Below are positions 6,608 to 62,606 of a stretch of DNA of 64,000 bases, piece by piece. The notes under the pieces are model-generated. The model made no database searches and was not told the DNA's origin. It saw only the letters and a list, made by a program, of their open reading frames with translations. Source of the DNA: Myxococcales bacterium (GTDB lineage: Bacteria; Myxococcota_A; Polyangia; Polyangiales; Ga0077539); contig JAEUKH010000018.1 of assembly GCA_016792845.1 (NCBI GenBank), positions 10,984 through 74,983 on the forward strand, given 5' to 3'. A program made the translations under genes and the position numbers. Each line of letters starts with the position of its first letter. Positions within the stretch are counted from its first letter, which is position 1.

Positions 6608-6616
6608 GCACACCCC

Positions 6617-8566: not shown

Positions 8567-8570
8567 TCCG

Positions 8571-8984: not shown

Positions 8985-9006
8985 CCCCAAGGCAAGAGGC
9001 ACGCGT

Positions 9007-43661: not shown

Positions 43662-45271
43662 CCATTTTCGAGCGCAGCCCGAAACACATCGGCCACCTCG
43701 GGGGCGTCGACGTGCCGCAGGCGCGCCCGACCGGGGGCCTCGGCGAGCACAAATCGCAGCCCCTGCGAGTCGCGCTTTTTATCGTGAAACAAAGCCTTCC
43801 ACGCGAGGTCATAGTCGACCCCCGGCGAGGCCCCGAGCCGCATCGCGCGGAGGGTGCCCACCACCCTCTGACGGAGCTCCGCCGGGGTGATGCCCAGCCG
43901 TACCCCGAGGTCAAGGGCCGCGCGCATCCCAAAACCGACGGCCTCACCATGTCGCAGCGCATACCCCGAAGCCTGCTCGACCGCGTGCCCGAGGGTGTGC
44001 CCGAAATTCAGCACCGCGCGGAGGCCCGCCTCGCGCTCATCGGCCGCCACCACGGCGATCTTGGCCGCGATGGCGCCGCGGATCACCTCGACCCGAAGCG
44101 CCCGCGCCTCGGCCCACCCCGCTGCCCGCGGCGCGACGGCGAGGGCCGCAGCGTGAGCCTCACAGAAATCGAGGAGCCCCGGGTCGACCACCACGCCGAC
44201 CTTCAGCACCTCGGCGAGCCCCGCGCGGTACTCACCCGCCGACAGGGTGTCGAGGGTGTCGACATCAACGCAGACCGCGCGCGGGTGATGAAAGGCGCCG
44301 ATGAGGTTCTTGCCCTCGGCGAGATCGACCGCGGTCTTGCCGCCCACCGCGGCGTCGGCCATCGCGAGCAGCGTGGTGGGCACCGAGACGTAGTCGATCC
44401 CGCGGAGGTAGAGCGCTGCGGCGAGGCCCACCATGTCGCTCACGACGCCTCCGCCGAGGGCTGCCACGAGGCCCTGACGGTCGACCCCGAGGCGCAAGAG
44501 CGTCGACCACACGGGCCCGAGCGCCGCGAGCTGCTTGTGGGCCTCGCCGGCTTCGAGCCGCAACGACTCGGCGCCCCAAGCGCGACAGAGCGCGTCGAGG
44601 GCTCGGGCCTGCGCGACGGCCACCGTGGTGTCGGTGACCACCAACCCGACGCGACGCGAAGGGCCGCCGCCGCGCGCCAGGTGTGATGCGAAGCTCGCAG
44701 CGGGGCCGAAGGAGATCGGGTAGCTGCGTCGCCCCAAGGGCACCACGAGGCTGTCACCGAGGGCGTCGTTGAGACCCGCGAGGGCGGCCGCCGCCGAGGC
44801 CACCGAGCCGCTGTTCTCGACGGTGGCGTCGACCTCGGCGTATCCCTCTTCGCGCGCGCTCAGAAGGGCCGCCAGCTGCCGCGCGGGGTCGTCGCTGACG
44901 AGGGGCCGGTGGCCCTCACGCGCGGCCCGCGAGACGAGCGTCGGCAGCGGCGCAGAGAGGCCGAACACCCGCGCACGGGTGAGCACGGTGTGACGCCAGG
45001 CCGTGTCGGTGAGGGCGCCTCCGCCGACCGCGATCACGCGCTCGGTGCCCGAGAGCAGGCTGTCGAGCATCGCCCGCTCTGCGGCGCGAAACGAGGCCTC
45101 GCCCGACTCTGCGAACCAGGTCGAGATCGCGCGACCGTGGGCGGCTTCGAGGGCGCGGTCGAGGTCGATGAACTGCCACCCGAGAGACGCCGCGAGGGCA
45201 GCCCCCACGGTGCTCTTGCCGACCGCCGGCGGGCCCCCAAGCACGATGCGGCGCGCGCGTGCGACGCTCAC
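43658..45271 (-). CDS. aroKB: bifunctional shikimate kinase / 3-dehydroquinate synthase (AroK-AroB fusion)
   Basis: Start GTG 45271-45269 overlaps the aroC TGA (GTGA). N-terminus RRIVLGGPPAVGKSTVGAALA is the shikimate kinase P-loop. Downstream are DHQ synthase motifs (GGGVVSDMVGLAAALYLRGIDYVSVPTTLLAMAD, NFGHTLGHAVE). The six-frame extension to 45733 is rejected. Confidence 0.75.
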   Translation of the reverse strand: MSVARARRIVLGGPPAVGKSTVGAALAASLGWQFIDLDRALEAAHGRAISTWFAESGEASFRAAERAMLDSLLSGTERVIAVGGGALTDTAWRHTVLTRARVFGLSAPLPTLVSRAAREGHRPLVSDDPARQLAALLSAREEGYAEVDATVENSGSVASAAAALAGLNDALGDSLVVPLGRRSYPISFGPAASFASHLARGGGPSRRVGLVVTDTTVAVAQARALDALCRAWGAESLRLEAGEAHKQLAALGPVWSTLLRLGVDRQGLVAALGGGVVSDMVGLAAALYLRGIDYVSVPTTLLAMADAAVGGKTAVDLAEGKNLIGAFHHPRAVCVDVDTLDTLSAGEYRAGLAEVLKVGVVVDPGLLDFCEAHAAALAVAPRAAGWAEARALRVEVIRGAIAAKIAVVAADEREAGLRAVLNFGHTLGHAVEQASGYALRHGEAVGFGMRAALDLGVRLGITPAELRQRVVGTLRAMRLGASPGVDYDLAWKALFHDKKRDSQGLRFVLAEAPGRARLRHVDAPEVADVFRAALENG

Positions 45272-46446
45272 GGGTGAGCCCCCATCTGTTGCCGCACGGC
45301 CTCGACGTTGCGGAGCAGCTCGCGCATGCTGTCGCCCCCGCACTTTTCGAGCAGGGCGTCGGCGAGCACGAGGCACACCATGGCCTCGACCACGACCCCC
45401 GCCGCGGGCACGGCGCAGAGGTCGCTGCGCTCGGTGTTGGCGTCGACGGGTCGGTGGGTCAAGAGATCGACCGAGGGCAGCGGGCGCCGCAAGGTCGAGA
45501 TCGGCTTCATGGCCGCCCGAAGCGTCAGCGCCTCGCCGTTGGTGACGCCGCCTTCGAGCCCCCCTGCGACGTTCTGGGTGCGGAGGTAGCGCCCGTGCTG
45601 GCGGGTGATCGGGTCGTGCACGGCGCTGCCCCGGCGACCCGCCGCGGCCCATCCGTCTCCCAGTTCGACGGCCTTGATGGCGTGCACGCTCATCACCGCG
45701 CCGGCGAGACGGGCGTCGAGTTTGCGATCCCATTGGGTGTAGCTCCCGAGGCCCACCGGGAGCCCCAAGGCCACCACTTCGACCACGCCGCCGAGGGTGT
45801 CGCCTTCATGCGAGACGCTGTGAATGGCCTCGCGCATGGCCTCCTCGGCCTCGGCCGAGAGCACCCTCAGGCTCGACGCTTCGAGCGCGTCGCGGCCTGG
45901 CCCGGGCAGGCACCATTGCCTCGGGTCGACCTCGGTGGGGTCTTCGACGCCGCCGATGGCGCAGACCCTCGACGCGACCCGAACCTCGACCGCCGCGAGG
46001 AGCGCGCGGGCCACCGCCCCGGCAGCCACCCGCGCCGCGGTCTCGCGTGCGCTCGCGCGTTCGAGCACGTCACGCACATCGCGACGGTCGAACTTCAGGG
46101 CCCCTGCGAGGTCGGCGTGCCCAGGCCTCGGGGTGCTGAGCGGGGCCGGCGCGGTCTCAAAGACCTCGGCCCCCATGCGGCCCTGCCAGTTGGCGAAATC
46201 GCGGTTCTCGATGCGCAGCCCGATGGGGGCCCCGAGGGTCTCGCCGCCGCGCACGCCGCCCTCGATGAGCGCCCGATCGCGCTCGATTTTCATGCGGCCG
46301 CCGCGGCCGTACCCGAGCTGCCGTCGCGCGAGGTCGTGGTTGATGGCCTCGGCCCCAAGAGAGAGCCCCGCGGGCACCCCGTCAACGATGACAGAGAGCG
46401 CGGGGCCGTGTGATTCGCCTGAGGTCAACCAGCGGAGGTGAGGCAT
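45268..46446 (-). CDS. aroC: chorismate synthase
   Basis: MPHLRWLTSGESHGPALSVIVDGVPAGL N-terminus. Conserved ...RSSARETAARV..., ...GGISNG-like GGVTNGEAL. Confidence 0.85.
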   Translation of the reverse strand: MPHLRWLTSGESHGPALSVIVDGVPAGLSLGAEAINHDLARRQLGYGRGGRMKIERDRALIEGGVRGGETLGAPIGLRIENRDFANWQGRMGAEVFETAPAPLSTPRPGHADLAGALKFDRRDVRDVLERASARETAARVAAGAVARALLAAVEVRVASRVCAIGGVEDPTEVDPRQWCLPGPGRDALEASSLRVLSAEAEEAMREAIHSVSHEGDTLGGVVEVVALGLPVGLGSYTQWDRKLDARLAGAVMSVHAIKAVELGDGWAAAGRRGSAVHDPITRQHGRYLRTQNVAGGLEGGVTNGEALTLRAAMKPISTLRRPLPSVDLLTHRPVDANTERSDLCAVPAAGVVVEAMVCLVLADALLEKCGGDSMRELLRNVEAVRQQMGAHP

Positions 46447-46492
46447 CTTCGGGGGCCTCGTTTTGCCCCCGAAGCGGTCTCACGCGCAACGG

Positions 46493-48094
46493 TCAGCGGC
46501 CGATTGACTCGGCGCGGTTGACGATGCGCGGGGTGAGGAAGATGAGCAGCTCAGCGCGGGTGTCGTTCTGTCGGTTGCGGCGAAAGAGCGCCCCGAGGAT
46601 CGGGATCTCGCTGAGCACCGGCACGCCCGTCACGTTACGACCCGTGGTGCGGCTGTAGATGCCGCCGATCACCGCGGTGCGGCCGTCTTGCACGAGGAGG
46701 TCGGTCTCGGCCTGGCGGCGCAAGATCGTGGGGTCGCCGCGGGCGCCGGTGTTGTTGAAGTCAGGCTCGTCGCGGTTGATCTGGACGTGCATCGAGATCG
46801 AACCGTCGGCGGTGACGTGGGGCCGCACCCGCAGCGCGAGCCGCGCCTCCTGAAAGGCCGTCTGGACGCCCGCGGCGCTCACCTGCGAGTACGGGATGAG
46901 CGTACCCTGCGAGATGGTGGCCTCGCGGTTGTCGAGGGTGAGCACCCGCGGCGAGCTCACGATGCGCAAGATGCCTGAGTTTTCAGCGGCCGAGAGGCGG
47001 GCGTTGAGGTTCAGGTTCTGAGAGAGCGAGCCGAGGCTCAACCCGAGCGCACCGCCCGCGCCGGTGCCCACCGAGGCCGGGAGGTTGATGGCGAAGTTCG
47101 GGTTCGCCACGGTGCGTGAGATGGGCGACAGACCCGCCGTCGGGGCGTTGGCATCGGCCGCGCCGCCGACGAGACCGATCGAGGCCGGGAAGGTGAGCCC
47201 GGTCTGATTGCCAAAGGCCGGCGAGAAGGCCACGTCACCGCCCCACTGGATGCCCACGTCGCGGGTAAACGTGCTCGTGGCCTCGACGATCCGCGCCTCG
47301 ACCAACACCTGCGGCGTCTGCGTGTCGAGCGAGCGGACGAGCTGCTCGATCTGGTTCAGGTTGGCCACCACGTCGCGCACGATCAGCACGTTGGTGCGGT
47401 CGTCGACCGAGAGGTTGCCGCGCCCCGAGAGGAGCTCCCGCGCCCGCGGCGCGATCTCAGAGCCCGTCGCGTAGCTCACGGGGATGAGCCGCGTCTCAAG
47501 GGGCTCAAGCGTCACGAGCTGCTTCTGCCGCTCGATCTGGAGCTCGCGCTCTTTATCGAGCACCGACTGCGGCGCGATGCGAATGATGTTGCCGTCGCGC
47601 TGCATCCCGAGCGAGCGCGCCGCGAGGATCACCTCAAGCGCACGATCCCACGGCACGTTGTGCATGCGGATGGTGACGTTGCCCGCTACGTCGTCAGAGG
47701 TGACAATGTTGACATTGCCCACTTCGGCGAGGAGCCGCAGCACGTTGTGAATGTCGGCGTCTCGGAGGTCGATGTCGATGCGACGCCCGGTACCCAGGGT
47801 CTGACCCCGCGCGCCGGTGATCTGCATCGGCACGGTTGAGAGAAAGCCCGCCTCGGCGCTGTCATCGTGGGCGGTGACCCCTGCGAGCGGGGCCTCGCGG
47901 GCGATGACCCGAGAGGGCGGCCGGGTGGGCGCCTCGGTGGGGGGCGTCAGGGGTTGTGCGTTGGCGGGCCTCGCCGTGCCCAACACCGCGGCAAGCACCA
48001 GCAGCGGCGCGAGCACGCACCACGGCCCGAACGGCCGCCCCGGCGCGTGTCGAAGGCCTGCTTGAATAGGGTGACCGTACATCCAAAACCTCAC
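46493..48094 (-). CDS. pilQ: type IV pilus secretin PilQ
   Basis: Signal peptide. AMIN/N0-like N-terminal region. Secretin core (…NLNARLSAAENSGILRIVSSPRVLTLDNREATI…VPVLSEIPILGALFRRNRQNDTRAELLIFLTPRIV). Confidence 0.8.
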   Translation of the reverse strand: MRFWMYGHPIQAGLRHAPGRPFGPWCVLAPLLVLAAVLGTARPANAQPLTPPTEAPTRPPSRVIAREAPLAGVTAHDDSAEAGFLSTVPMQITGARGQTLGTGRRIDIDLRDADIHNVLRLLAEVGNVNIVTSDDVAGNVTIRMHNVPWDRALEVILAARSLGMQRDGNIIRIAPQSVLDKERELQIERQKQLVTLEPLETRLIPVSYATGSEIAPRARELLSGRGNLSVDDRTNVLIVRDVVANLNQIEQLVRSLDTQTPQVLVEARIVEATSTFTRDVGIQWGGDVAFSPAFGNQTGLTFPASIGLVGGAADANAPTAGLSPISRTVANPNFAINLPASVGTGAGGALGLSLGSLSQNLNLNARLSAAENSGILRIVSSPRVLTLDNREATISQGTLIPYSQVSAAGVQTAFQEARLALRVRPHVTADGSISMHVQINRDEPDFNNTGARGDPTILRRQAETDLLVQDGRTAVIGGIYSRTTGRNVTGVPVLSEIPILGALFRRNRQNDTRAELLIFLTPRIVNRAESIGR

Positions 48095-48270
48095 AGAAGG
48101 GTGACGTCTCAGGGGAGGCTATGACGGCCTCACGAAGGACCCCACATTTTGAGCAACTCTTGTCTCAGCCCGACAGAACCCTTCGTCTGCCCGCTCCGAC
48201 GATGCCGCGATCAAGCAAACATCGTCGTGTTTCTACCGCTCCGCACGGCCCCCTACGGGTGGCTTCGCGC

Positions 48271-49260
48271 TCAGCGAAGCGGCGACTCGCCCCCGGTGAT
48301 CACCACCGGCGGCGGCGTCGTGGGCACGGCCATCGGCTGAACCGCTTGTTGAGCCGGAGGCGCTTGCACGATCACCGTCGTCTGCTGTGGCGGCGGCGGC
48401 GCGCCCACAGCGCCCCGCACCCCCGCCGGCGTGGGCGGTACGATGCGCCCCCCACCCGGCGCTGCGCCGGGCACGCCAGGGCCCCCTGGAGGCCCTGACG
48501 GGCCACCTCCGCCGAGGTTCGACGGCAGGTACGCCGGGCCCCCGCCTCCGAGACCGGGCGGCAGGGCGCCCACGGCGCTCGGGTCGACGGCGCCGGTGCT
48601 CGTGACAGCGCTCGCCTGGTCGTTGCCCGCGAGGGGCAGCGAGCGCTCGACAACCTGGGCGGTGGGGTTGAGCGGGTCGGGCCGCTCGAGCACGAGCTCT
48701 GCGGGCACCTCGAACATCTGCCCGTCGGGGCCGCGACGGAGCCGCGACGGGAGCACCCGCGCGACACGCCAATGCACGGCGTAGTCGTTACGGTTCTCGG
48801 TGTTCGAGTGGATCATCTCGGGCCGACCGACGAGCACCCCGCGGCGCAGGATGGTGCCGCGCCGGGTCGGGTCGACCACCATCGCGTAGGGGCTGTCGGT
48901 GCCGAGCACCACGGCCACGAGGCGGAGGTCGTCGAGCGAGTAGTTCGACAAGGCCACCGAGCGGGTGTCTTGATTCACCACGGTGCCGTCGGTGCGAAAC
49001 ACTTCGGCGTACGACCTGAAGGGGTCGCGCACCTGGCCGCTCTCGACGAACGAGTTGTCGGTGACCGTGAGCGCCGGCAGCGAGGCGTCGGCCTCGGTCG
49101 CGGCATCGCCGCGGTTGCGGTTTCGGTTACGGGGCCCGCCGGTGGGGGTCGCCGTCGGAGGCGCGGGGGCCGCCGCGGGGGGCGCTTCGTCGTCGCCGCA
49201 ACCGGCCAAGGCGACGGTCGAGGCGAGCACGATCGCGCCAAACGAGGTGTTGCGTTTCAT
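48271..49260 (-). CDS. pilP: type IV pilus assembly lipoprotein PilP (with Pro/Gly-rich C-terminal extension)
   Basis: Lipobox LAGCGDD. Conserved PilP core (RDPFRSY...LDDLRLVAVVLG...YAMV). Position between pilO and pilQ. Confidence 0.6.
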   Translation of the reverse strand: MKRNTSFGAIVLASTVALAGCGDDEAPPAAAPAPPTATPTGGPRNRNRNRGDAATEADASLPALTVTDNSFVESGQVRDPFRSYAEVFRTDGTVVNQDTRSVALSNYSLDDLRLVAVVLGTDSPYAMVVDPTRRGTILRRGVLVGRPEMIHSNTENRNDYAVHWRVARVLPSRLRRGPDGQMFEVPAELVLERPDPLNPTAQVVERSLPLAGNDQASAVTSTGAVDPSAVGALPPGLGGGGPAYLPSNLGGGGPSGPPGGPGVPGAAPGGGRIVPPTPAGVRGAVGAPPPPQQTTVIVQAPPAQQAVQPMAVPTTPPPVVITGGESPLR

Positions 49261-49928
49261 GGGCGGGCTCCGTCGGTCACGCCGCGACCGGTTTGATTGC
49301 GGGGCGCCGCGGCGCCGTTACGCGGCCCACCCTCGACGCTGCGGAAGGTCGTCGCCTGCACGTCGGCTTCGAGGTGCCACTCGTTGGTCGCCGGGTCGAG
49401 GGTCGGCTGCCGGAGACGAATGTTCTCCATATTGATCACACGCGGCAGCTGCGACACCGAGTGAAAGAAGCGCGCGAGCTGCAAGAAGCCGCCGCGGATC
49501 TTCAGCTCGACCGGGATGCGCGCATAGTACTGCTCGACGCGCTCTTCGACGGGTCGAATCAGGCTCAGCTGGAGGCCGCTGGCCTCGGCGAGCGCGTTCA
49601 CGTTTCGGATGAACCCGGGGATGTCTGGGTCGCTCGGCAACACCTGCCGCAGCGACTCTTCGCGCTGCCGGGCGCGGGCCAGCTCGGCCTGGTCGCTGTT
49701 GTACCGCCGGAGGTCTTCTTCGACCTGGCGGCGCTGCGTCTGGAGGGTGCCGCGACGGGTCTCCTCCATCTGCCGGTTCTCATCGAGCGGCGTGTAGAAC
49801 ATGGTGTAGTACAGCGCGCCGACCGCGAGCACCGCCACGACCCAGGCGCCGACCACGAGCGCGTTCGGGTTGATCGAGCCCAGGGCCCGCGGCTGCGAGA
49901 GCTGGGTATTCTTCTTCGCGGTGGCCAT
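49257..49928 (-). CDS. pilO: type IV pilus assembly protein PilO
   Basis: Single TM segment, coiled coil, and the PilO C-terminal domain (…IPVELKIRGGFLQLARFFHSVSQLPRVINMENIRL…). Order pilM-N-O-P-Q. Confidence 0.65.
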   Translation of the reverse strand: MATAKKNTQLSQPRALGSINPNALVVGAWVVAVLAVGALYYTMFYTPLDENRQMEETRRGTLQTQRRQVEEDLRRYNSDQAELARARQREESLRQVLPSDPDIPGFIRNVNALAEASGLQLSLIRPVEERVEQYYARIPVELKIRGGFLQLARFFHSVSQLPRVINMENIRLRQPTLDPATNEWHLEADVQATTFRSVEGGPRNGAAAPRNQTGRGVTDGARP

Positions 49929-50594
49929 TCAGTACCTCACCCGCGCAACAATGGTGAACTTCTGCACCGTTACACCGCCGCCCCGAGGGCCCGACGCGGT
50001 CGCGGCCTGGGTGCTGTCGAGCCGCACATCGCGGAAGTAAACCGAGAGCTGCAAGCGCCGCATGAACTCGCCCACGTCGTCGGGCGTGCGACCCTCGCCG
50101 CTGATCCGCACCGAGCGATTCTCTTCGATCAGCTCGGTGATCCAGAGGCGTTGAAAATCCCAGGTGGGGCTCCACATCCGGTCGCGCTGGTTGGTGCTCC
50201 GGAGCCGCTCGACCACGGTCGGGTCAGCGGTCGGCACGCCGCCGCGCGAGAGCATCCGCGAGACCTCGACGAACATCGCCGTCGGGCCCGTGCGGGCGTT
50301 CTGAAGCTCGCGAATGGCGTCTTCGCGGCGCTGCGCTTCGGCCAGCTCGTCGAGGATGCGCTGGTGGTCGCCGACCCGCGAACGGATCGACTCGATCTCG
50401 CTCTGGACGCGGGTGTTCTGCTCGACAAGACTCTGGAGCTCTTTGTCTTGCGAGGCGTGGAAGAGGAAGAGCCCCCCGAGCAGGAGCACCACCGATGCCA
50501 CGGCGCCCACCAGCAGAAACGTCGACACCGTGTTGGTGCTCGGCGTCGAGGCCCTGCGGGCTTTGTCCTCGGTAAGTAGGTTGATCTTCAGCAT
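49929..50594 (-). CDS. pilN: type IV pilus assembly protein PilN
   Basis: MLKINLL N-terminus (PilN hallmark), one TM segment and a coiled coil. Confidence 0.7.
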   Translation of the reverse strand: MLKINLLTEDKARRASTPSTNTVSTFLLVGAVASVVLLLGGLFLFHASQDKELQSLVEQNTRVQSEIESIRSRVGDHQRILDELAEAQRREDAIRELQNARTGPTAMFVEVSRMLSRGGVPTADPTVVERLRSTNQRDRMWSPTWDFQRLWITELIEENRSVRISGEGRTPDDVGEFMRRLQLSVYFRDVRLDSTQAATASGPRGGGVTVQKFTIVARVRY

Positions 50595-50601
50595 CGTGGG
50601 C

Positions 50602-51669
50602 TCACACCTTCTCGCGGTCTTTCCGCAGGGCGAGGCCGATGGCCACGCACACCTGGGCGCGGTGGAGGTTCAACTGTTCGGTGTTGACCTCTTTGGGGTC
50701 TACCGCAATGTCTCGAAACGGATCGAGCGGCTCGACCGGCGCCTTCGCGCGCCGCTCAAGGGCCACTGCCATCTCCGGAATGTTCGCCGTGCCGCCCGAG
50801 AGATAGATGCGCCCGATCTCGCGCTCGCCGCTGGTGGCGAGGTAGAAATCGAGCGAGCGCAGGATCTCGGCCGAGAGCTGCTCGACCGCCTGACGGATGA
50901 TCTGCGGCACCTCGGCGGGCACCACCGCGCGGGCGTCGAGCTGGCCGCCGGCGGCGTGGGTCTTGTAGACCTCGGCCTCCTCCCAGCTGATGCCGAGCCG
51001 CTTCTGGATCTCTTCGGTGATGGCGTTGCCGCCGTTCACGATGCTGCGGGTGAAGGCCGGGATGCCCCCGGACAAGATGTTCACCGTGGTGAGACCCGCG
51101 CCGATGTTGATGAGCGCGACGTTGCCCTCGCGGGGCAGCCCGTAGTTGACCTCGAAGGCGTTCTGCACCGTGAAGGCGTCGACGTCGACCACGGCGGGCT
51201 TGAGCTTGGCTTCCCGCGCCACCTGCGCCGCGTCGTTGATCTCTTCCTTCTTGGCCGCGACGAGGAGGACGTCCATCTGCCCCTGTTCGGGTCGACGGCG
51301 CAGCACCTCGTAGTCGATCTGCACGTCTTTGATGTCGTAGGGGATCTGCTGCTCGGCCTCCCACGGGATCTGCTCGGCCAGCTCGGCCTGCGTCATCATC
51401 GGCAGCGCGAGTCGGCGGATGATCACCGCGTGGCCGCTCACCGCGAGCGAGCACTCCTTGCGCTTCAGCTTGAGCTGACTCCACAGACTGTTGAGGCCCT
51501 GGATGATCGCCGACGCGTTCATCACGTGACCGTCGACGACGGTCTGCGAGGGCAACGGATAATAGCCGAATTTCACCAACGTCCGTTTGCCGCGGACGTC
51601 TTTCAGCTGACAGAGCTTGATAGAGCTCGACCCAATGTCGACGCCCACGAGGTAATTGCCCTCGGCCAT
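50602..51669 (-). CDS. pilM: type IV pilus assembly ATPase-like actin-fold protein PilM
   Basis: N-terminus YLVGVDIGSSSIKLCQL... of the actin/FtsA-like fold. Length 355 aa. Confidence 0.85.
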   Translation of the reverse strand: MAEGNYLVGVDIGSSSIKLCQLKDVRGKRTLVKFGYYPLPSQTVVDGHVMNASAIIQGLNSLWSQLKLKRKECSLAVSGHAVIIRRLALPMMTQAELAEQIPWEAEQQIPYDIKDVQIDYEVLRRRPEQGQMDVLLVAAKKEEINDAAQVAREAKLKPAVVDVDAFTVQNAFEVNYGLPREGNVALINIGAGLTTVNILSGGIPAFTRSIVNGGNAITEEIQKRLGISWEEAEVYKTHAAGGQLDARAVVPAEVPQIIRQAVEQLSAEILRSLDFYLATSGEREIGRIYLSGGTANIPEMAVALERRAKAPVEPLDPFRDIAVDPKEVNTEQLNLHRAQVCVAIGLALRKDREKV

Positions 51670-51840: not shown

Positions 51841-52350
51841 TCAGGCCTTCTTGCGGGCCCGGGCGCCGTTCTGGGCGGGCGCTTCTTCTTCATCAACCTT
51901 GATGTCTTCGAGGTTGATTCGCACCTTTGACTGCACCGCGGGCTCGGGGTTCTCACCGCCGTCGTCGACCTCGACCAGCGTCGCGTACACCGTCGCGATG
52001 GTCGGCGCGAGCAAGAGCGGGATCTGTTGCAGCGTGTGCCCCGCGCCCACCCCGGCGAGCGGCACCTCGAACTTCAAGAGCCCCGCCAACGCGTAGAGCC
52101 CCACACCGACCCCGAGGCCGAACACCGCCCGAAGGATGGCCGCAACCCCCGCCCCCTCACGCCACGCCGGACGCCCCGCGAGGAGCCCCGCCAGCGCCCC
52201 GACCACTGCGTAAAAGACGTACGCCAGCGGCCCGATCAGCGTCGTGGCCCCGAGGCCGAAATGGAGCGCCGCCCCGAGTGCACCGCCGACCAGGAGGCCC
52301 TTCACGAGACCAATTACGAGTCGTTTCATGCGAGGCGTAGACGGTGCCAC
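51841..52350 (-). CDS. small integral membrane protein (4 predicted TM helices, acidic/Lys-rich C-tail)
   Basis: Hydrophobic Gly/Ala/Leu-rich ORF. The likely start is the internal MKRLVIGLV (52329). No family assigned. Confidence 0.4.
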   Translation of the reverse strand: MAPSTPRMKRLVIGLVKGLLVGGALGAALHFGLGATTLIGPLAYVFYAVVGALAGLLAGRPAWREGAGVAAILRAVFGLGVGVGLYALAGLLKFEVPLAGVGAGHTLQQIPLLLAPTIATVYATLVEVDDGGENPEPAVQSKVRINLEDIKVDEEEAPAQNGARARKKA

Positions 52351-52412: not shown

Positions 52413-55079
52413 TCAGAAGCCCGGCGTCGCGCCGGTGGGGACGAGCTGCGTCGAGAGCGCGCCGTGCGCGTCGACACCCTCGGCGCGAAGCACGAAGAGC
52501 GCTTCGACGTAGAGCCGCCCCTCGTCGAGGCGACCCTCGCCGATGGCGCTCACCCGCACGTTGCCGTCGCCGAGCCGTGAGAGCTCGATGACGAGCGGCT
52601 GAGAGGCCCCGAGGCGCAGCGCCGCGTCGCCCTTCTCGAAGCCCGTTGGGTGCGCCGCGAGCGCCGCCAGGGCGTGAAGCCCCGCGTCGGCCGAGGGCCC
52701 TTCGAAGCCGAGCAGCATGCCCTCGCTGCCCGTAGTGAGACGGCCCACAAAGGCCCGCGCGACCTCGGCGTTGCTGTCGCCGAAGGCCACACGCCCCGCG
52801 CGCATCGAGAGCGCCAGCTGAACCGCAGGCCCCCACCCCGAAGCCCCCTGCGCGCGGAACGACAAGGCCGACCGACGCGCCCGCGAGAGCTCGTCGTGCG
52901 CCTCGACCAGCGCGACCCGATCACCCGCCGGGAGCTCGCCGAGCAACGCAGCCAGGAGCGTCGTACGCCCCGCGCCCCGCGCGCCCACCACGACGATGTT
53001 GCGCCGCGAGACCAGCGCGTTGTGCAGCAGAGCCACCGCGGGCGCCGAGAGCACCCCACGGGTGGCCAGCTCTTGCAGCGAGGCCGGCCGCGCCGCCGCG
53101 CGCTCAAGGGTCGCCACCACCCCGTGCGGCACCAACGGAGCGTAGGCCGCCACCACCCGCACGCCGCCGTGCACCACGGTGTCGATGTGGCTCGACGCGC
53201 CGCGGTTGAAGCCCTGGGCCCCGAGCCAGCGGTCAAGACACTCGGCCGCCGCTTCGCTGCTCGAGAACCACTGCCCTGTCGCGGCAATGGCGCCCCCGCG
53301 GGCCGCGTGCACAGCCCCCGCGCCGTCGATCACCACCGCGGTGGTCTCGCCGTCTTCGAGGAGCGCCTCAAGGGCGCCGCTGCCCGCGATCTCTGCCAGG
53401 GCGTCGCGGGTCAGCCGCTCGACGGTGACCCCCGCGGGCATCGGGCCTACGGCGCGGGCCGTCTGCTCGACCAGGGGCCGAAGCCGCGCGCGCGCAACCT
53501 CGTCGCCCGCAGCGCCGTCACCGCCGCGCTGCCTGGCCTGCCGAACAACCTGCCCCAAGACCTCTTGATACTCGTTGCCGACCTGCGGTTCGAGCGCCCG
53601 CGCCACGGGCCGCGAGGCGATCTGAGCCGTGGCCCCGAGGCCCAACGAAGGCGCAGCGAGAGGCGTCGGCGCAGGGCCCGAAGGCGGCAGCCCCAAAGCC
53701 GGCGCTGACAGCGACTCTGCCATCATCGGCTCGGGCTGCGACTCGCGGTGAATCTCAACCGGCACCGGCGCCATCACGGGCTCGATGGGCGCCGCCTGCG
53801 GTGCGCCGAAACCAGGCGGAGGGCCCATCATCGGCGGGGCCCCGAGACCAGGCGGAGGGCCCATCATCGGAGCACCCAGACCGGGCGGAGGGCCCATCAT
53901 CGGAGCACCCAGACCGGGCGGAGGGCCCGGCGGTGCGCTCAACCCTGGGCCCATGCTCGGCGCCGCCAACGGCGGGGTCGCGAGATTGGGAGGAGGGCCA
54001 CCAAGCGACGGCGGAGGGCCGCCAAGCGACGGCGGTGGGCCACCAAGCGACGGCGGTGGGCCACCAAGCGACGGCGGTGGGCCGCCAAAGGAGGGTGCGG
54101 GCCCACCAAACGACGGCGCAGGCCCCCCCATCGGAGGCGGAGGGCCGCCCAGCGACGGCGGAGGGCCGCCAAGCGACGGCGCGCCGGGCTGGCTTGAACG
54201 GAGCGGCGGAGGCCCACCCACAGGAGCCCCTCCGGGCGGTGTGGCCATGGGGCCAGGAGGCCCGCCAAGCGGCGCGGCCGAGAGCCCACCCGCAGCAGGG
54301 CCCATCGAGGGTCGATTGCCAGGACCCCCAGAGGCAGACCCCACGCGCGGCGCAGGCCCGTTCGACAAGCCCGGCGGCGGGCCCATCGGCGGAGGGCCAC
54401 CCATCGGCGCGCCACCCATCGGCGGAGGGCCGCCCATTGGCGCACCACCCATCGGCGGAGGGCCGCCCATCGGCGCACCACGCATCGGCGGAGGGCCACC
54501 CATCGGCGCGCCACCCATCGGCGCGCCACCCATCGGCGGAGGGCCGCCCATCGGCGCGCCACCCATCGGCGGAGGGCCGCCCATCGGGCGCGGACCACCC
54601 GGCGGCGGACCCATCATCCCGGGCGGTGCGGTCATCGCGCGGGGACCACCCGGCGGGCCCGCAAAGCTCGGCGCCGGAGCCGGTGCTTCTTCTTCGTCGC
54701 CCCCGCCCCCGCCGTCGTCTTCGGGCGGCATCGCGTCGGCCGAGCCGTCGTCGACAAACTGGGCGTTCGGGTCGTCGACCATGGGCTGATCGCCCATCTC
54801 GACCATCACCACGAAATCGCCGATGTAGATCTTGTCGCCGGGGCGAACCACCGAGGGCGTCGTGATACGCCGACCGTTGAGGTAGGTGCCGTTGGTGCTC
54901 TTGAGGTCAACGACGAAGAAACGCCCGTCTTGACGCACCACCCGAGAGTGCCGCTTCGAAACATTGCCCTTCGGCAGCACAATGTCATTGCCCGGGACCC
55001 GACCGACCGTCACCTCGTCTCGGTCGAACTCCATCCGCTTCGGGGTACCGCCCTTTTCAGTGACGATCAGTGTCAGCAT
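52413..55079 (-). CDS. FHA-domain protein with long Pro/Gly-rich repeat region and C-terminal CpaF/VirB11-like (type II/IV secretion-type) ATPase domain
   Basis: N-terminal FHA domain (VTVGRVPGNDIVLPKGNVSKRHSRVV...TNGTYLNG). About 350 aa of GGPPPM / GGPPPSL tandem repeats. C-terminal Walker A VVGARGAGRTTLL and VALVEAHDEL. Immediately upstream of the pilM operon on the same strand. Confidence 0.7.
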   Translation of the reverse strand: MLTLIVTEKGGTPKRMEFDRDEVTVGRVPGNDIVLPKGNVSKRHSRVVRQDGRFFVVDLKSTNGTYLNGRRITTPSVVRPGDKIYIGDFVVMVEMGDQPMVDDPNAQFVDDGSADAMPPEDDGGGGGDEEEAPAPAPSFAGPPGGPRAMTAPPGMMGPPPGGPRPMGGPPPMGGAPMGGPPPMGGAPMGGAPMGGPPPMRGAPMGGPPPMGGAPMGGPPPMGGAPMGGPPPMGPPPGLSNGPAPRVGSASGGPGNRPSMGPAAGGLSAAPLGGPPGPMATPPGGAPVGGPPPLRSSQPGAPSLGGPPPSLGGPPPPMGGPAPSFGGPAPSFGGPPPSLGGPPPSLGGPPPSLGGPPPSLGGPPPNLATPPLAAPSMGPGLSAPPGPPPGLGAPMMGPPPGLGAPMMGPPPGLGAPPMMGPPPGFGAPQAAPIEPVMAPVPVEIHRESQPEPMMAESLSAPALGLPPSGPAPTPLAAPSLGLGATAQIASRPVARALEPQVGNEYQEVLGQVVRQARQRGGDGAAGDEVARARLRPLVEQTARAVGPMPAGVTVERLTRDALAEIAGSGALEALLEDGETTAVVIDGAGAVHAARGGAIAATGQWFSSSEAAAECLDRWLGAQGFNRGASSHIDTVVHGGVRVVAAYAPLVPHGVVATLERAAARPASLQELATRGVLSAPAVALLHNALVSRRNIVVVGARGAGRTTLLAALLGELPAGDRVALVEAHDELSRARRSALSFRAQGASGWGPAVQLALSMRAGRVAFGDSNAEVARAFVGRLTTGSEGMLLGFEGPSADAGLHALAALAAHPTGFEKGDAALRLGASQPLVIELSRLGDGNVRVSAIGEGRLDEGRLYVEALFVLRAEGVDAHGALSTQLVPTGATPGF

Positions 55080-58060: not shown

Positions 58061-58993
58061 TCAGCGCTCTGAATGCCCGCAGCGAATGCCCACGTCGACC
58101 GAGGGCTCTCTCGATTCGGTGCGGCACCTTTCGTTGAGGCTGACCGGGCGCTCTCGAAAGCTCGACCCGCAGCTCTCGATGTAGAGGCTCGTCGTCCAGT
58201 AGCGAAGGTTGCCGACCAGGTCTTCGACCCCGACCGCCGAGCGCGGTCTCGCGGGGCTCGCCTCACAGGGTAATGTGCGCCGCGCTTGCGGGCTCCAGCA
58301 GGTCTCGGTCGTCGGCGCTTCGTTGCCCCAGGGGTAACGTCGATCGTCGCCCGCACGGCCCACCGCGGGCCACATCCCAGACTGTGGGATCTCGGCCTCG
58401 CGAAACCGACAGAATGCCCGCGCGTTTTCGAACGAGACGCAGTTGATGGGGCGCAGGGGCTCGCCAGGCCGGGCGGCGCTGCACCCGGGCCCGAGCCCCG
58501 GTGGGGGGCAGGCGCGCGCGGCCACACACGCGAGATACTCGCCTACGGTCACCAACCGTGTCGACAGGCAGTTCGTCGGCCCGATGCTGCCCTCGCCCAC
58601 CTCGGGGATGCCGCTGTAGCCGGCCCGACACAGCGGAATCGGACCGATCCTTTCCAGCCGATGGATCTCACCCACGACCTCCTCGGGGCGCCGCTCGGTC
58701 GCTCTCGGAGGGGGCCCTGAAGGCCCTGAAGGCCCCGAAGGCTCTGATGACCCCGAAGGAGCTGATGACCCCGAAGGAGCTGATGACGCCGATGACGCCT
58801 GGTCGCGACCACCCGCCACGCAACGCAGGACCCCCGACACGTTGACCTGGCGGTAGCCCGGGGCGCACAGACATTGCTGGCCATCGGGTGCGGGGCGACC
58901 GCGGTTGCTCGGGCCGCACTGGAGCCGCGCCTGCGCCCAAACCGACGATGTTGACAGTGTCAACATGAGCAAGGCCGTCAGCGAGCGCTTCAT
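58061..58993 (-). CDS. secreted FGE-sulfatase (SUMF1/formylglycine-generating-enzyme-like) domain protein
   Basis: Start ATG 58993 (MKRSLTALLMLTLSTSSVWA signal). Ser-rich linker. FGE-domain motifs INCVSFENARAFC, RYPWGNE, GNLRYWT. Confidence 0.6.
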   Translation of the reverse strand: MKRSLTALLMLTLSTSSVWAQARLQCGPSNRGRPAPDGQQCLCAPGYRQVNVSGVLRCVAGGRDQASSASSAPSGSSAPSGSSEPSGPSGPSGPPPRATERRPEEVVGEIHRLERIGPIPLCRAGYSGIPEVGEGSIGPTNCLSTRLVTVGEYLACVAARACPPPGLGPGCSAARPGEPLRPINCVSFENARAFCRFREAEIPQSGMWPAVGRAGDDRRYPWGNEAPTTETCWSPQARRTLPCEASPARPRSAVGVEDLVGNLRYWTTSLYIESCGSSFRERPVSLNERCRTESREPSVDVGIRCGHSER

Positions 58994-59811
58994 CGCGCAC
59001 CGAGCGGGGCGACGCATCGAAAGCCGACGCGGCGGAGGTGGGTGGCGTTGGCCGCAACGCCGATGCGTGAGGTGACGGTGACGAACTCGGGCGAGACGTC
59101 GCCGTATCCGCCGCCTCGCACGGCGACCCGGGCCTGCGCGAGGGGGGCGTCAGGCTGGAGATTGGCGGGCATCTCCAAGGAGACGGGCTGGGCTGAGCCG
59201 GCACTCTGGGGGCCGCCCATCGGCAGGAAGAGGTTGAGGGTGAACTCCCAGACGTTGCCGGCCATGTCGTCGAGGCCGAGCGGGCTGCGCCCTGCGGCGA
59301 AGCTCCCGACCTGGCAGGTGCCTTCGCGCTGGCCTTCGAAGGCGCCGCTCCAACAGAGCTGTGAGACAGGCGGAGCGTCGCCCCAAGGGTACCGCCTTGG
59401 GTCGCCGCTCTGGGCGGCGTACTCCCACTGCGCCTCGGTAGGGAGGCTGAACCCGAAGGCCTGACAGTACCGACTGGCCTCGATGAAGCTCACGCAGTTC
59501 ATCGGGTGCCTGCCGTTGCCTGCGCGCACGATGTTGCAGTTCTCTTGAAAGGCTCGCCCCGAGCATGCGCCGCGCGCGACGCACGCGCTGTAGTCGTCAG
59601 CGGTGACCTCTGCGGTGTGGATGCAGAACCCGCTCTGCGAGACGGCCTGGGCCTGGACCTGGCGTTGGGACGCGCTGAGGCCGATGATGACCTGCCCGGC
59701 GGTGACCGCGACCATGCCCTGAGGGCACGCCGGGCCGACTTGCGCGAGCGCTGCGGCGGAGCCTAGCAGCGCCGCGAAGAACGACACGCTTCTTGTGTGA
59801 TGCACTGTCAT
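58990..59811 (-). CDS. secreted FGE-sulfatase domain protein (paralog)
   Basis: Start ATG 59811 (MTVHHTRSVSFFAALLGSAAALA). Motifs MNCVSFIEASRYCQAFG, RRYPWGD, GNVWEFT. TGA overlaps the ATG of the downstream paralog (ATGA). Confidence 0.6.
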   Translation of the reverse strand: MTVHHTRSVSFFAALLGSAAALAQVGPACPQGMVAVTAGQVIIGLSASQRQVQAQAVSQSGFCIHTAEVTADDYSACVARGACSGRAFQENCNIVRAGNGRHPMNCVSFIEASRYCQAFGFSLPTEAQWEYAAQSGDPRRYPWGDAPPVSQLCWSGAFEGQREGTCQVGSFAAGRSPLGLDDMAGNVWEFTLNLFLPMGGPQSAGSAQPVSLEMPANLQPDAPLAQARVAVRGGGYGDVSPEFVTVTSRIGVAANATHLRRVGFRCVAPLGAR

Positions 59812-59822
59812 GATCGCCCTCC

Positions 59823-60785
59823 TCACCGAATGCAACGAATGCCGACGCCGGCCAGCGCCCCGGGCTCATCGGGGACGGGGTAGCGCACCGTCGCGCCGAG
59901 GTACTCGGTGTTGACGACGCGCCAGCTGCCGCCCCGCGCGACGCCGAGCGCCCCGGCGGCGCCCCGCACCGGTACGTTCGCCAGCACGTTCTCTCGGGTG
60001 GCATAGGCGTTGGCGACGTAGACGTCGGCGGTCCACTCCCAGAGGCTGCCGACCATGTCGGCGACGCCGAAGGCCGAGAGGTTGGCCGCGCAATTGCCCG
60101 GGTAGCGATACTCGACCGGCCGCTCTTCACCCGGTCGCCGAATCAGACACGGCACCTCGTTGAGGCTCGTGCCCCACGGGTAGCGCGCCCCGGTGGCGCC
60201 GCGCGCTGCGAACTCCCACTCGGCCTCGGTGGGCAAGCGCATATTCCGCCACGCACAGAAAGCCGCCGCCTGCGCCTGGGTCACGCAGCTGATCGGCCGA
60301 TCGTACGTCGTGTCGGTGCGCGGCACGGTGCTCGGCGGCACGCTGCATCCCGCCCATCGCCCGGGCGGCGTGCACGCTTGCGCGTCGACACACTCGAGGT
60401 ACGCGCGCGCGGTCACCTCGCGGGTCATCATACAAAACGGCGCGACCTCGACGAGGACCCGCGGGCGCTCATCGGGGCGCCCCTCGCCCTCGCGAGAGCC
60501 CATCATGAACCACCCGCCTTCGACCGCGCGGGAGTCGACGTCGCAGCCGCGGCGCAGCGGCCACAACAGCCGCCCGGGGGGCCGCCCGTCGGCCACCGTG
60601 ATCGACAGCGCCACGCACATCGAGACCGACCCCTCGGTGCGCTCCTCGGCGCCCGCAGGGCACTCGCAGCGCGCGGCCGTGGGCGACGGACGCCCGGCGC
60701 CGCAGCGCATCACCGTCGGCACCGCGAGCGCAGTGCCAACATGCGCCATCATGAGACAGAATAGCAAGACTCGGGGGTGGGTCAT
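59823..60785 (-). CDS. secreted FGE-sulfatase domain protein (paralog)
   Basis: Signal peptide MTHPRVLLFCLMMAHVGTALA. Motifs ISCVTQAQAAAFCAWRNMRLPTEAEWEFAA, ARYPWG, GSLWEWT. Confidence 0.65.
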   Translation of the reverse strand: MTHPRVLLFCLMMAHVGTALAVPTVMRCGAGRPSPTAARCECPAGAEERTEGSVSMCVALSITVADGRPPGRLLWPLRRGCDVDSRAVEGGWFMMGSREGEGRPDERPRVLVEVAPFCMMTREVTARAYLECVDAQACTPPGRWAGCSVPPSTVPRTDTTYDRPISCVTQAQAAAFCAWRNMRLPTEAEWEFAARGATGARYPWGTSLNEVPCLIRRPGEERPVEYRYPGNCAANLSAFGVADMVGSLWEWTADVYVANAYATRENVLANVPVRGAAGALGVARGGSWRVVNTEYLGATVRYPVPDEPGALAGVGIRCIR

Positions 60786-60791
60786 GGGTGT

Positions 60792-62606
60792 CTAGTTCGG
60801 CGCCTTCACGCATCGAAAACCGGTGTGTTCTGTGCCGCTCGCCCGCTCTTCGGTGCCGTGGATGACGTAGTCTTCGAGGTCATCGTGCGGGACCCCGAAG
60901 TAGCCGCCCATGGCGTGCTGAAAGGGCTCGTGTTGGGTGGCGTCGACCCACTCGTTGACGTTGCCGAGCGCGTGGCGATACCCGTCGTTTTCGTCAGTCG
61001 GGAGTGCGATCGGGGTGTCAGCGCGGCTGAGGAGTTGCAGCTCGGGGGTGAAGCCGCGCGCCCACGGAGGGAGGCCCGAAGCGTCGACGCCGAGGGCCTG
61101 AGCCCACTCGGCACGGGTCGGGAGTCTCGCGTCGAGCCGCGCGCACCACGCCGCGGCTTCGGCGTGCCCGATCTTGACCACCGGGAGCTGTGACTCGGCC
61201 TCACCCAGCGATTCTCGCGCGACCAAGAGGTTATATTCACCACGCGAAACCTCCATACGCTGAATATACACACCATTTCTCATCGCAAAAGGATTGCTAC
61301 GAAGCACGATGTCGCGGGGTTGCAGCGCGGGCGGTAATTCACGGGGCGCCGCGCGAGGGCCCGCCGTGGCGGTGCGCGGCGTGGTCACCGAGGGGGTTGC
61401 GGGCGCGGGTTGCGGCCGAGGCGCCCGGCGCAGAACCCAGATGACCGCCGCGGCGAGTACGAGGCCCATCGCCGCCGCCACGCCAAGGCTTGAGCGCCTC
61501 AGGCGGGCTCCCCCCGGAGGGGCTACACCGTTCGGTGTCGCGGCCCCCGACGACGCCGCCGCGACGGTCGCCTGGGCCACCACCGACAGCGGCTGAGTGG
61601 CCGCGGTCTCGCCCCCGGGCGCGCGCGCCACGGCGTCGACCACAACCCGCGGCAGCGGCGCGGTCGGCGCGAAGGGCGTCGCGCGCAACGGCTGCGTCTC
61701 GTGCGACGGCTCGGCGGCGGGCGGGGGCTCGACCGGGACGCCTGCGAGCGCGCTCTCGAAGGCGGTCACGCAGGCCGCGACGTCGACGAATCGGTCAGAC
61801 GGCTCCCATGCGATGCAGGTCGAAAACCACGCGTCGAACTGAGGCCCCGTCGGCACGCCGTAGTCGCCCGATCGCGCGGAGAACGGCGCGTTCGAGCGCG
61901 AGAGGACCTCGCGCCGCACATCCTCGGGGTGCAGCGCTTCGCCGTTCGCGGTCGGCCAGTAGTGCCGCCCCGTGACGAGGTAGAAGGCCACGAGGCCGAG
62001 GGCCCAAACGTCAGCGGCGGGGGTGACCGCGCCGACCGAGACGAGCTGTTCGGGCGCCGCGTAGGCGGGCCTGAGCGCACCCCGGGCCCCCTCACCCGCC
62101 GACGTCGCGGCGAGCGCCTCTTGGAGGCCTAGATCGAAGATCTTGAGCGTCGGCAGCGCGCCGCCCCCCTCGACGAGAAAGAGCGTCTCGGGCCGGAGGT
62201 CGCGGTGCGCGAGGCCCCGCGCGTGAAGCCCCCCGAGCGCCGCACCGAGCGACCGAAGGAGCCACTGGAGGTCGTCGCGCGCCCACCGACCCGCGCGCTG
62301 GACCCGCGACGCGACGCTCTCGCCGCGCAAGAGCTCGCGCACCTCGAAGAGCCCCGCGGTCGCGTCGCACCCTACCTCGACGAGCCGTACGCCGTGCCGC
62401 GGCCCCAGGGTCGCAGCGTGGGCCTCGACCCCCGCGCGGATCGCCGCGAGGGAGGCCGCGTCAACGCGCTGATCTGGCACGAGCCTCAGCGCGAGCCGGT
62501 CGCCCCCGCGGGGCGCCTCGACCTCGTACACGGCGCCGAGGCGGCCTTGCCCGATGGTGCGCACCACGACATATCGCCCATCGATCACCATGCCCGCACG
62601 AAGCAC
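60792..62606 (-). CDS. Ser/Thr protein kinase-like domain (VAIK Lys replaced by Arg) - TM segment - extracellular FGE-sulfatase domain fusion
   Basis: Gly-loop IGQGRLGAVYEV. Beta-3 LALRLV (Arg where the catalytic Lys is expected). HRDLRPETL catalytic loop. DLG variant of DFG. AYAAPE. TM segment LGVAAAMGLVLAAAVIWVL. C-terminal FGE-like region (HAEAAAWCARLDARLPTRAEW..., GNVNEWV). Confidence 0.7.
   Translation of the reverse strand: MLRAGMVIDGRYVVVRTIGQGRLGAVYEVEAPRGGDRLALRLVPDQRVDAASLAAIRAGVEAHAATLGPRHGVRLVEVGCDATAGLFEVRELLRGESVASRVQRAGRWARDDLQWLLRSLGAALGGLHARGLAHRDLRPETLFLVEGGGALPTLKIFDLGLQEALAATSAGEGARGALRPAYAAPEQLVSVGAVTPAADVWALGLVAFYLVTGRHYWPTANGEALHPEDVRREVLSRSNAPFSARSGDYGVPTGPQFDAWFSTCIAWEPSDRFVDVAACVTAFESALAGVPVEPPPAAEPSHETQPLRATPFAPTAPLPRVVVDAVARAPGGETAATQPLSVVAQATVAAASSGAATPNGVAPPGGARLRRSSLGVAAAMGLVLAAAVIWVLRRAPRPQPAPATPSVTTPRTATAGPRAAPRELPPALQPRDIVLRSNPFAMRNGVYIQRMEVSRGEYNLLVARESLGEAESQLPVVKIGHAEAAAWCARLDARLPTRAEWAQALGVDASGLPPWARGFTPELQLLSRADTPIALPTDENDGYRHALGNVNEWVDATQHEPFQHAMGGYFGVPHDDLEDYVIHGTEERASGTEHTGFRCVKAPN

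Follow-up and report, generated by a model that had tools for sequence, protein, structure and literature searches.

A probable pseudo-ATPase related to the class III CpaF and KilF motors, encoded near type IVa pilus genes in a myxobacterial genome

CpaF proteins of class III, which act as motor ATPases of Tad pili, are composed of an FHA domain, an intrinsically disordered region (IDR), a three-helix bundle (3HB), an N-terminal domain (NTD) and a CAD domain, as exemplified by E3HIW0 of Achromobacter xylosoxidans (PMC12019362, Nat Commun 2025). KilF, the motor of the Kil prey-killing apparatus of Myxococcus xanthus, likewise carries an N-terminal FHA domain on a Tad-like ATPase (PMC8460266, eLife 2021). 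Here we analyzed a gene of the same general build, located at positions 52413-55079 on the minus strand of a 64,000-nucleotide stretch of DNA from a Myxococcales bacterium (GenBank assembly GCA_016792845.1, contig JAEUKH010000018.1, positions 10,984 to 74,983), hereafter the window, to which all coordinates refer. A first-pass annotation, made from the sequence alone, had called the architecture of this protein unusual and proposed that it regulates or energizes either type IV pili or a machine related to them. The architecture proved to be that of the class III CpaFs and of KilF, already published, whereas the catalytic site was found to be degenerate, and we conclude that the protein is probably a conserved pseudo-ATPase and not a motor. 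The gene and its parts are the following:

52413-55079, minus strand: the whole gene, encoding an FHA domain, a disordered proline/glycine (P/G)-rich tether and a degenerate CpaF-like domain (open reading frame (ORF) list and translation)
54786-55079, minus strand: FHA domain, amino acids (aa) 1-98 (Pfam PF00498)
54660-54785, minus strand: acidic segment following the FHA domain, aa 99-140, GGGGGDEEE and then APAPAP (20% Asp, 10% Glu)
53613-54659, minus strand: P/G-rich IDR, aa 141-489 (by composition, with no Pfam match)
54381-54602, minus strand: tandem array A, (GGPPPM-GGAPM)n in 33-nt units, aa 160-233 (Tandem Repeats Finder, TRF)
53982-54191, minus strand: tandem array B, GGPPPSL / GGPAPSF heptads in 9-10 units of 21 nt, aa 297-366 (TRF)
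53799-53933, minus strand: tandem array C, (MM)GPPPGLGAP in 3.5 units of 33 nt, aa 383-427 (TRF)
52416-53579, minus strand: CpaF/TadA-like domain, aa 501-888 (phmmer, TIGR03819, AlphaFold2, Foldseek)
52959-52985, minus strand: degenerate Walker A, GARGAGR705TT (alignment to CpaF and motif table)
52887-52907, minus strand: equivalent of the Asp-box, VE726AHDE730L (alignment to CpaF)
52767-52811, minus strand: alpha9 and Walker B region, LS758MRAGRVAFGD768SNA (alignment to CpaF)
52692-52736, minus strand: His-box remnant, TTGSEGMLLGFEGPS (alignment to CpaF)

The CpaF/VirB11-type fold that the first-pass annotation had assigned to the C-terminus was borne out both by sequence and by structure prediction. 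Compared with PDB sequences using phmmer, aa ~550-883 aligned to Caulobacter CpaF (8rkd/9e24) with E=8e-16 over 334 aa. An AlphaFold2 model of aa 501-888, for which 16 family sequences served as input, reached a predicted local distance difference test (pLDDT) score of 88 and a predicted template modelling (pTM) score of 0.77, and displayed the 3HB (~502-575), the NTD (~581-659) and the RecA-like C-terminal domain (~668-881). In Foldseek the model matched CpaF first (8rjf/9e24, E=5e-26), followed by FlaI, archaeal GspE and VirB11, and so, judged by this model, the domain keeps the complete CpaF fold. Family profiles fitted it less well: of the two Pfam families that had been suggested for checking, FHA was found and T2SSE was not (PF00437 at aa 658-784, 18.4 bits, under the gathering threshold of 24.9); the TadA-type model TIGR03819 aligned nearly over its full length (aa 544-847, E=2.7e-26), yet scored 92.6 bits against a cut-off of 373, and the VirB11 model TIGR02788 scored 37.9 bits against a cut-off of 250. 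With an FHA domain at aa 1-98, a linker of ~400 aa and a CpaF body at aa 501-888, the protein displays the architecture of class III CpaF.

Catalytic residues were mapped by means of the phmmer alignment to C. crescentus CpaF, using the residue roles described for that protein (PMC12019362). The Walker A motif, first taken to be intact, carries an arginine, R705, in place of the invariant catalytic lysine (CpaF K287), while the Mg2+-coordinating T288 is kept as T706. The two Asp-box glutamates, E308 and E312, are also kept, as E726 and E730, though some sub-clades (P0014-19) have lost them. Examination of Walker B and the His-box, which had been proposed as a check, found neither of them intact: the Walker B glutamate E357 is replaced by an aspartate (D768, in VAFGD768) and the V-R-G following it is lost, and both histidines of NTGHDGSxxTxHANS are replaced, by Ser and Glu. 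In relatives, the Walker B residue is E or D and the R-G/D after it is lost throughout, and both histidines are gone in every member of the clade. Two arginine fingers are missing as well, R347 being replaced by S758 and R217 by V635, whereas the finger R223 is kept as R641 and D215, which stabilizes R347, as D633. In CpaF itself, a K287A mutation yields an enzymatically dead protein (PMC12019362). Judged by these residues, the protein would bind nucleotide at most, and the energizing role first proposed for it is unlikely, given that the degeneration is family-wide. In RecA-like P-loops, a lysine to arginine change classically retains nucleotide binding and abolishes hydrolysis.

The extent of this decay was assessed using a profile of the domain, which retrieved 17,734 CpaF-like proteins from 1.84 billion representative proteins; motifs were read from the best 150 of the 17,734, together with earlier matches, after alignment to the profile. 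Canonical CpaFs displayed GGTGSGKTT / IEDAAEL / IVVGECRG / NTGHDGSLTTxHANS. The top-scoring group formed a single clade of 36 sequences in a neighbour-joining (NJ) tree, with Arg at the lysine position in 34 of them, Ser in two and Lys in none. Its sister clades lack the lysine too (having Val, Leu, Thr or Arg instead), save one two-member sister that keeps it, and in some members the whole P-loop is gone (GPCASSRGA, GD-SSAVAA) while similarity over the rest of the domain is retained. All full-length members combine an FHA domain, a Pro-rich linker of 260-470 aa and a degenerate CpaF body. In the least saturated pair, the ratio of nonsynonymous to synonymous substitution (dN/dS) of the C-domain was 0.14, suggesting that it is still evolving under purifying selection. 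Since the decay of the site is family-wide and is accompanied by purifying selection, the protein is best regarded as a conserved pseudo-ATPase rather than a lesion.

Beyond the clade, the search revealed other groups of FHA-linker-CpaF-like proteins (P0020, P0053, P0055, P0071 and P0102, among others), whose FHA domains match the one described here with E~1e-40. These groups are decayed to varying degrees, some keeping the lysine and losing the His-box (GGAGAGKTT/ASxxDG...) and others having a wholly destroyed P-loop (GD-SSAVAA). The two of their members that have a named source (P0191 and P0199) come from metagenome-assembled genomes of Myxococcales/Polyangia; P0020 is an orphan, ~4 kb from a trio of FHA, PP2C and kinase genes. 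This pattern suggests that motor-derived pseudo-ATPases have radiated broadly, with the FHA-IDR-CpaF architecture giving rise to several catalytically decayed paralogue groups in Myxococcota.

The N-terminal FHA domain was detected by Pfam (PF00498) at aa 23-87, as first annotated, with E=3e-18 and 66.5 bits against a gathering score of 20.7; other matches of the domain include NCBIfam TagH and the FHA domain of ArnA in the PDB. All residues associated with phosphothreonine (pThr) binding are present, namely G26-R27, S41-x-x-H44 and N63-G64-T65 (the GR, SxxH and NGT of GarA/OdhI in the alignment), and by these residues the domain appears competent for pThr binding. It is 92-100% identical in amino acids across orthologues whose C-domains are only 47-84% identical, with a dN/dS of 0.00-0.09, indicating very strong purifying selection. 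Since its pThr-binding residues are intact, control of the protein by a Ser/Thr kinase, as proposed in the first-pass annotation, is plausible. That a whole clade lacks the catalytic lysine yet has a near-invariant FHA domain suggests that a motor-derived fold here serves a non-enzymatic role dependent on phosphorylation. The FHA domain shares 62% identity with that of P0097, a KilF-like protein whose gene, in a Kil-like cluster, is flanked by those for a short secretin and a multi-FHA protein.

The gene is a single ORF of 888 aa, with an ATG at 55079, a stop codon at 52413-52415, a GAGGAG 12-17 nt 5' of the ATG and a GC content at third codon positions of 0.81, the GC content of the window being 70%. 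Its N-terminus, MLTLIVTEKGG, is common to its orthologues, among them full-length ones of 892 aa (L001), 919 aa (L005) and 948 aa (L003), as re-read from the DNA; further full-length members, of 743-923 aa, were found in the representative-protein search. Many database entries of the family are fragments of 400-500 aa, because gene callers pick an internal Met or contigs stop within the repeats: most database proteins of the family, as seen in the entries P0001-P0019, lack their N-terminus and begin instead at an internal Met codon or a contig end, the repeat region is truncated or mis-stranded by gene callers in most entries, and one annotation places a 512-aa antisense ORF across the P/G tract. 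In the window, the antisense ORFs 53785-54789, 53801-54865 and 52650-53708 (plus strand; 334-354 aa) were considered as genes and rejected, as all homology lies on the minus strand; they are shadows of a high-GC, repeat-rich coding strand. The named sources of the family are all uncultured ('Polyangiales bacterium', 'Polyangia bacterium', 'Myxococcales bacterium' and 'Deltaproteobacteria bacterium'), and its members are labelled 'pilus assembly protein CpaF' or 'ATPase, T2SS/T4P/T4SS family', labels which would wrongly give these genomes a Tad motor. PADLOC returned a single weak match to the P-loop (mad8, E=4e-4) and hence no defence-system assignment.

Between the two domains lies a linker that measures ~400 aa from the end of the FHA domain to the C-terminal profile match, and 260-470 aa in all full-length relatives. 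It is kept in length and Pro-rich composition across relatives and poorly in sequence: in close relatives the GGPP(P)M array and the GGPPPSL array occur in unchanged order, and distant ones are P/A/S-rich without tandem repeats. In the full-length alignment the acidic stretch and the PPP patch following it are the sole semi-conserved island at the linker start. The P/G-rich region proper (aa 141-489, 349 aa) comprises 33% Pro, 24% Gly and 8% Met. The first-pass annotation had described it as about 350 aa of tandem repeats encoded by near-perfect nucleotide repeats; its extent was confirmed, but only about half of it is clear tandem repeat, the remainder being non-repetitive and P/G/A-rich, and while core units of the arrays are 90-100% identical in nucleotides, several differing at synonymous sites alone, the arrays as delimited by TRF show 83-91% matches. 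Array A gave periods of 33, 81 and 114 at 54372-54619 with 86-90% matches, three of its units being identical in nucleotides; array B gave a period of 21 with 9 copies at 53992-54181 and 83% matches, its core units being 90-100% identical with synonymous differences; and array C gave a period of 33 at 53811-53928 with 91% matches. The GGPPPSL array was also found in L001, L005, L013 and P0008. A collagen-like or structural repeat was considered for the P/G tract and rejected, as the units are of 7 and 11 residues and not G-X-Y, and Pfam gave no match. Two short motifs recur in the linker, GGPPPLR[SGA]SQP in its middle (window 54183-54218, aa 288-299; also in L001, L005, L013 and P0031) and [HQG]R[ED]V[MIL]P ~70-100 aa before the 3HB in most relatives, diverged to HRESQP here; both are possible short linear binding motifs.

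Downstream of the gene and on the same strand lie a partner gene and a type IVa pilus (T4aP) module:

51841-52350, minus strand: downstream partner, a Gly-rich four-helix membrane protein of 169 aa (162 aa from M8) with an acidic disordered C-terminal tail
46493-51669, minus strand: T4aP alignment and secretin genes pilM-pilQ (Pfam)
50602-51669, minus strand: pilM (Pfam PilM_2, E=9e-72)
49929-50594, minus strand: pilN (Pfam PilN)
49257-49928, minus strand: pilO (Pfam PilO)
48271-49260, minus strand: pilP, assigned by position alone (329 aa, no Pfam match)
46493-48094, minus strand: pilQ (Pfam Secretin with STN and Secretin_N)

The gene had been described as lying directly upstream of pilMNOPQ. 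The pil genes do follow on the same strand, but the 169-aa membrane protein gene intervenes: a gap of 62 nt separates the gene from the partner and one of 171 nt the partner from pilM, after which come pilN, pilO, the PilP-position gene, pilQ, aroC and aroKB. The PilM_2, PilN, PilO and Secretin domains identify an M-N-O-P-Q module. A consensus scan of the coding strand detected no strong terminator-like site separating the gene from the partner or the partner from pilM, its single match being a weak one with a 5-bp stem within the FHA-coding region; a scan for sigma-70-like promoters returned none, which is uninformative for a myxobacterial genome of 70% GC. The 162-aa form of the partner is identical to an annotated protein (locus tag JNK72_05840) of a 'Myxococcales bacterium' metagenome-assembled genome; its structure was predicted with database homologues, and the searches made gave no family or fold match. 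The PilP-position gene (48271-49260, minus strand) encodes a long Gly/Pro-rich C-terminal extension (GGGGPSGPPGGPGVPGAAPGGG...PPPPQQ), unusual for PilP.

The conservation of this arrangement was examined by tblastn of the window proteins against fetched loci of ~10 lineages. The order gene-partner-pilMNOPQ-aroC was found in five lineages (the window population, L011/12/15/16/17; L001/L002; L005; L013/L014; and L006/L007/L019/L020), in which the C-domains are 49-66% identical to that of the window. Most lineages keep the partner downstream of the gene, among them three of the five loci that lack pil neighbours (L008 and L009/L010, which have the gene and partner without pil, and L004, in which the two stand alone on a 5-kb contig); the partner is thus a steadier neighbour than the pil genes. 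Also part of the conserved block are a MerR-TPR gene, coaE, a gene for a NAD-binding reductase, usually one for a HAD hydrolase (not in the window), aroC, aroKB and tdk, and since these include unrelated housekeeping genes, adjacency alone is weak evidence of function. Pfam scans of the ~45 main ORFs of the 64-kb window identified no TadB/TadC platform, Flp pilin, RcpA/CpaC-type secretin or TadZ/CpaE, nor any pilB, pilT or pilC. At 5.7 kb upstream of the gene lies one for a fusion of a Ser/Thr kinase with an FGE-sulfatase domain (60792-62606, minus strand).

Several other features of the window were recorded. The kinase-FGE fusion is followed by three tandem paralogues with FGE-sulfatase domains (59823-60785, 58990-59835 and 58061-59017, minus strand). 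At 43658-48094 (minus strand), pilQ is followed by aroC and then by a fused aroK-aroB (SKI and DHQ synthase), an arrangement kept in all related loci with pil genes; it echoes the pilMNOPQ-aroK-aroB arrangement of Pseudomonas. The region 4403-13457 (plus strand) encodes a DUF2169 and pentapeptide-repeat protein and a second, large one with pentapeptide repeats, together with a Phage_GPD protein resembling VgrG (9007-10662) and a protein of 932 aa without a significant family match, having only a sub-threshold EF-hand; it looks like a spike/effector module of a type VI secretion system (T6SS).

The reading that we favour, with a probability of roughly 0.6, is that the protein is a non-catalytic paralogue of the class III CpaF/KilF motors, a pseudo-ATPase with a phospho-dependent scaffolding or regulatory function at the inner membrane, possibly directed at type IVa pili. 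In such a mechanism, the FHA domain would dock on a pThr mark set by a Ser/Thr kinase and the long flexible tether would give the C-terminal module reach to its site, where this CpaF-shaped module, turning over no ATP, would serve as a static docking or oligomerizing unit at the inner membrane. Its P-loop glycines, Thr706, Glu726 and Glu730, with Arg at the lysine position, would permit nucleotide binding at most, as in RecA mutants of the K72R type, and the four-helix membrane protein of ~170 aa whose gene comes next downstream would most likely be its anchor. In the window lineage the target may be the adjacent PilMNOPQ machine, for instance by occupying or regulating the site of the real motors; synteny is the evidence for this assignment, which is possible with the odds leaning against it, and the FHA similarity agrees equally well with a Kil/Tad-type machine located elsewhere in the genome. 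Whichever the target, the protein would be a concrete candidate for a route of Ser/Thr signalling to pilus or Kil-type machines in myxobacteria.

A number of observations weigh against this reading or parts of it. Because Arg at the lysine position, Thr706 and both Asp-box glutamates are conserved in most members, nucleotide binding may still matter, as their conservation hints, and Arg705 could conceivably support slow hydrolysis. The position beside pilMNOPQ, on which the first-pass annotation had relied, is real, but the linkage is not universal: no pil genes stand beside the orthologue in four lineages (L003, L021, L008 and L009/L010), and with housekeeping genes in the same block the T4aP link may be incidental. 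In L003 and L021 the partner is absent from beside the orthologue too, the gene standing alone, and no kinase or phosphatase is consistently adjacent among the related loci. The NJ tree is crude, and the C-domain dN/dS values of 0.3-0.6 are unreliable, dS being saturated for most pairs.

Three other explanations were weighed against it. The first-pass annotation had itself raised a collapse or expansion of the repeats during assembly, and this, or a gene that is a decaying relic, would mean that the 888-aa protein does not exist. Five independent short-read contigs from the population of the window do begin inside the gene, four of them within the repeats: L011 and L012, which match the window at 99.3-99.5% identity, begin in array C (at 53880 and 53874, respectively), L015 and L016 show the gene layout of L011, and the fifth, L017, begins further downstream, within the C-terminal domain; a relative, L013 (L013:7186-9909; GCA_963853115.1, contig CAWKWE010000004.1), has two compensating frameshifts in the tract on a contig of 3.78 Mb, and the miscalling of this region in most database entries could be read in the same way. 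The exact copy numbers of the arrays in the window are provisional, because the short-read contigs begin inside the gene and the tract of this relative is frameshifted. The tract as such is nonetheless real, since the reading frame is open and compositionally coherent across all three arrays, the units differ at synonymous sites, as a simple assembler loop would not produce, and at least six independent assemblies (L001, L005 and L003 among them, and L020 and L021 by tblastn spacing) hold a P/G tract of 400-470 aa between the same FHA and C-domains in one frame. With both flanking domains under purifying selection in addition, we consider an artefact highly improbable. The P/G tract defeats sequencing, assembly and gene calling, breaking short-read assemblies and misleading gene callers, and the family is thereby systematically truncated in public protein sets.

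A working secretion-type ATPase that is controlled by Ser/Thr kinases and powers type IV pili or some related machine, with Arg705 standing in for the Walker A lysine, would account for the full CpaF fold, for the retention of the P-loop glycines, Thr706, Glu726, Glu730 and an acidic Walker B residue, for an arginine that is conserved (34/36) and hence not random, and for the location beside pilMNOPQ in five lineages. It is improbable, however, in view of the inactivity of CpaF K287A, of the loss of hydrolysis with binding kept upon lysine to arginine changes in RecA-like P-loops in general, and of the concurrent loss of both His-box histidines and of the R347 and R217 fingers; moreover, sub-clades with a completely destroyed P-loop persist, the T2SSE match falls under its Pfam threshold, and T4aP machines run on PilB/PilT and not on CpaF-type motors. 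Rather unlikely, though to be taken seriously, is a pseudo-ATPase adaptor that is unconnected to type IV pili and works with its four-transmembrane (4-TM) partner in another process, be it a Kil/Tad-like contact-dependent machine elsewhere or a membrane signalling complex, the pil adjacency being inherited gene order. The lineages without pil neighbours agree with it, as do the retention of the partner in three of the five no-pil loci, the presence of coaE, the NAD-binding reductase, aroC, aroKB and tdk in the conserved block, and the Kil/Tad type of the nearest catalytic relatives, with their 62% identical FHA. Yet gene, partner and pilMNOPQ keep their order in lineages with as little as 49-66% identity in the C-domain, the coding strand shows no strong terminator-like site between the genes, and no Tad/Kil genes were seen in the 64-kb window.

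The preferred reading of a phospho-dependent pseudo-ATPase can also be taken a step further, to a Tad motor exapted in Polyangia as a dead, pThr-gated module with a private 4-TM anchor, forming a plug or brake under the T4aP basal body (PilM/PilC), with a polyproline-rich tether of ~400 residues whose repeat number tunes its reach. We consider this version doubtful. If true, type IV filament systems would have in it their first natural pseudo-ATPase regulator to descend from the motor family itself, and Tad-derived and T4aP machinery would be cross-wired.

Compared with known systems, the protein shares with class III CpaF the order of FHA, disordered linker, 3HB, NTD and RecA-like domain, CpaF being its best match in both sequence and structure. 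It differs from class III CpaF in lacking the catalytic lysine, the His-box and two of the arginine fingers, in being encoded outside any tad/cpa locus, and in its low score on the TadA-type NCBIfam model (92.6 vs 373 bits); its linker of ~400 aa with tandem repeats also contrasts with the 79 aa of the Caulobacter class II CpaF. With KilF it shares the phylum and the FHA-linker-CpaF architecture, but proteins of the KilF type such as P0097 have canonical motifs (GGTGSGKTT / VEDAAEL / IVVGECRS / NTGHDGSLTTVHAN) and are encoded in a Tad-like cluster, whereas here the motifs are degenerate and the gene lies next to the T4aP pilMNOPQ or alone. The literature searched contained no description of a catalytically dead FHA-CpaF, and so, while the FHA-IDR-CpaF architecture itself is published, the protein belongs to an apparently undescribed, catalytically decayed and orphan clade of class III FHA-CpaF/KilF.

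Further parallels exist in the Fha (TagH)/PpkA/PppA system of T6SS and in ArnA of the archaellum, where, as proposed here, an FHA protein reads a pThr mark that gates the assembly of an envelope nanomachine; those FHA proteins, however, are not fused to a motor-ATPase fold, and a cognate kinase/phosphatase pair is not consistently linked to the gene described here. TadZ/CpaE and the archaellum protein ArlH/FlaH are nucleotide-binding, poorly or non-hydrolyzing accessory proteins of type IV filament machines, and share with our proposal the concept of a degenerate NTPase serving as a docking or localization factor for a type IV filament motor. These proteins have other folds, ParA/MinD-like in TadZ/CpaE and KaiC-like in ArlH/FlaH, whereas the degenerate protein described here comes from the motor ATPase family itself.

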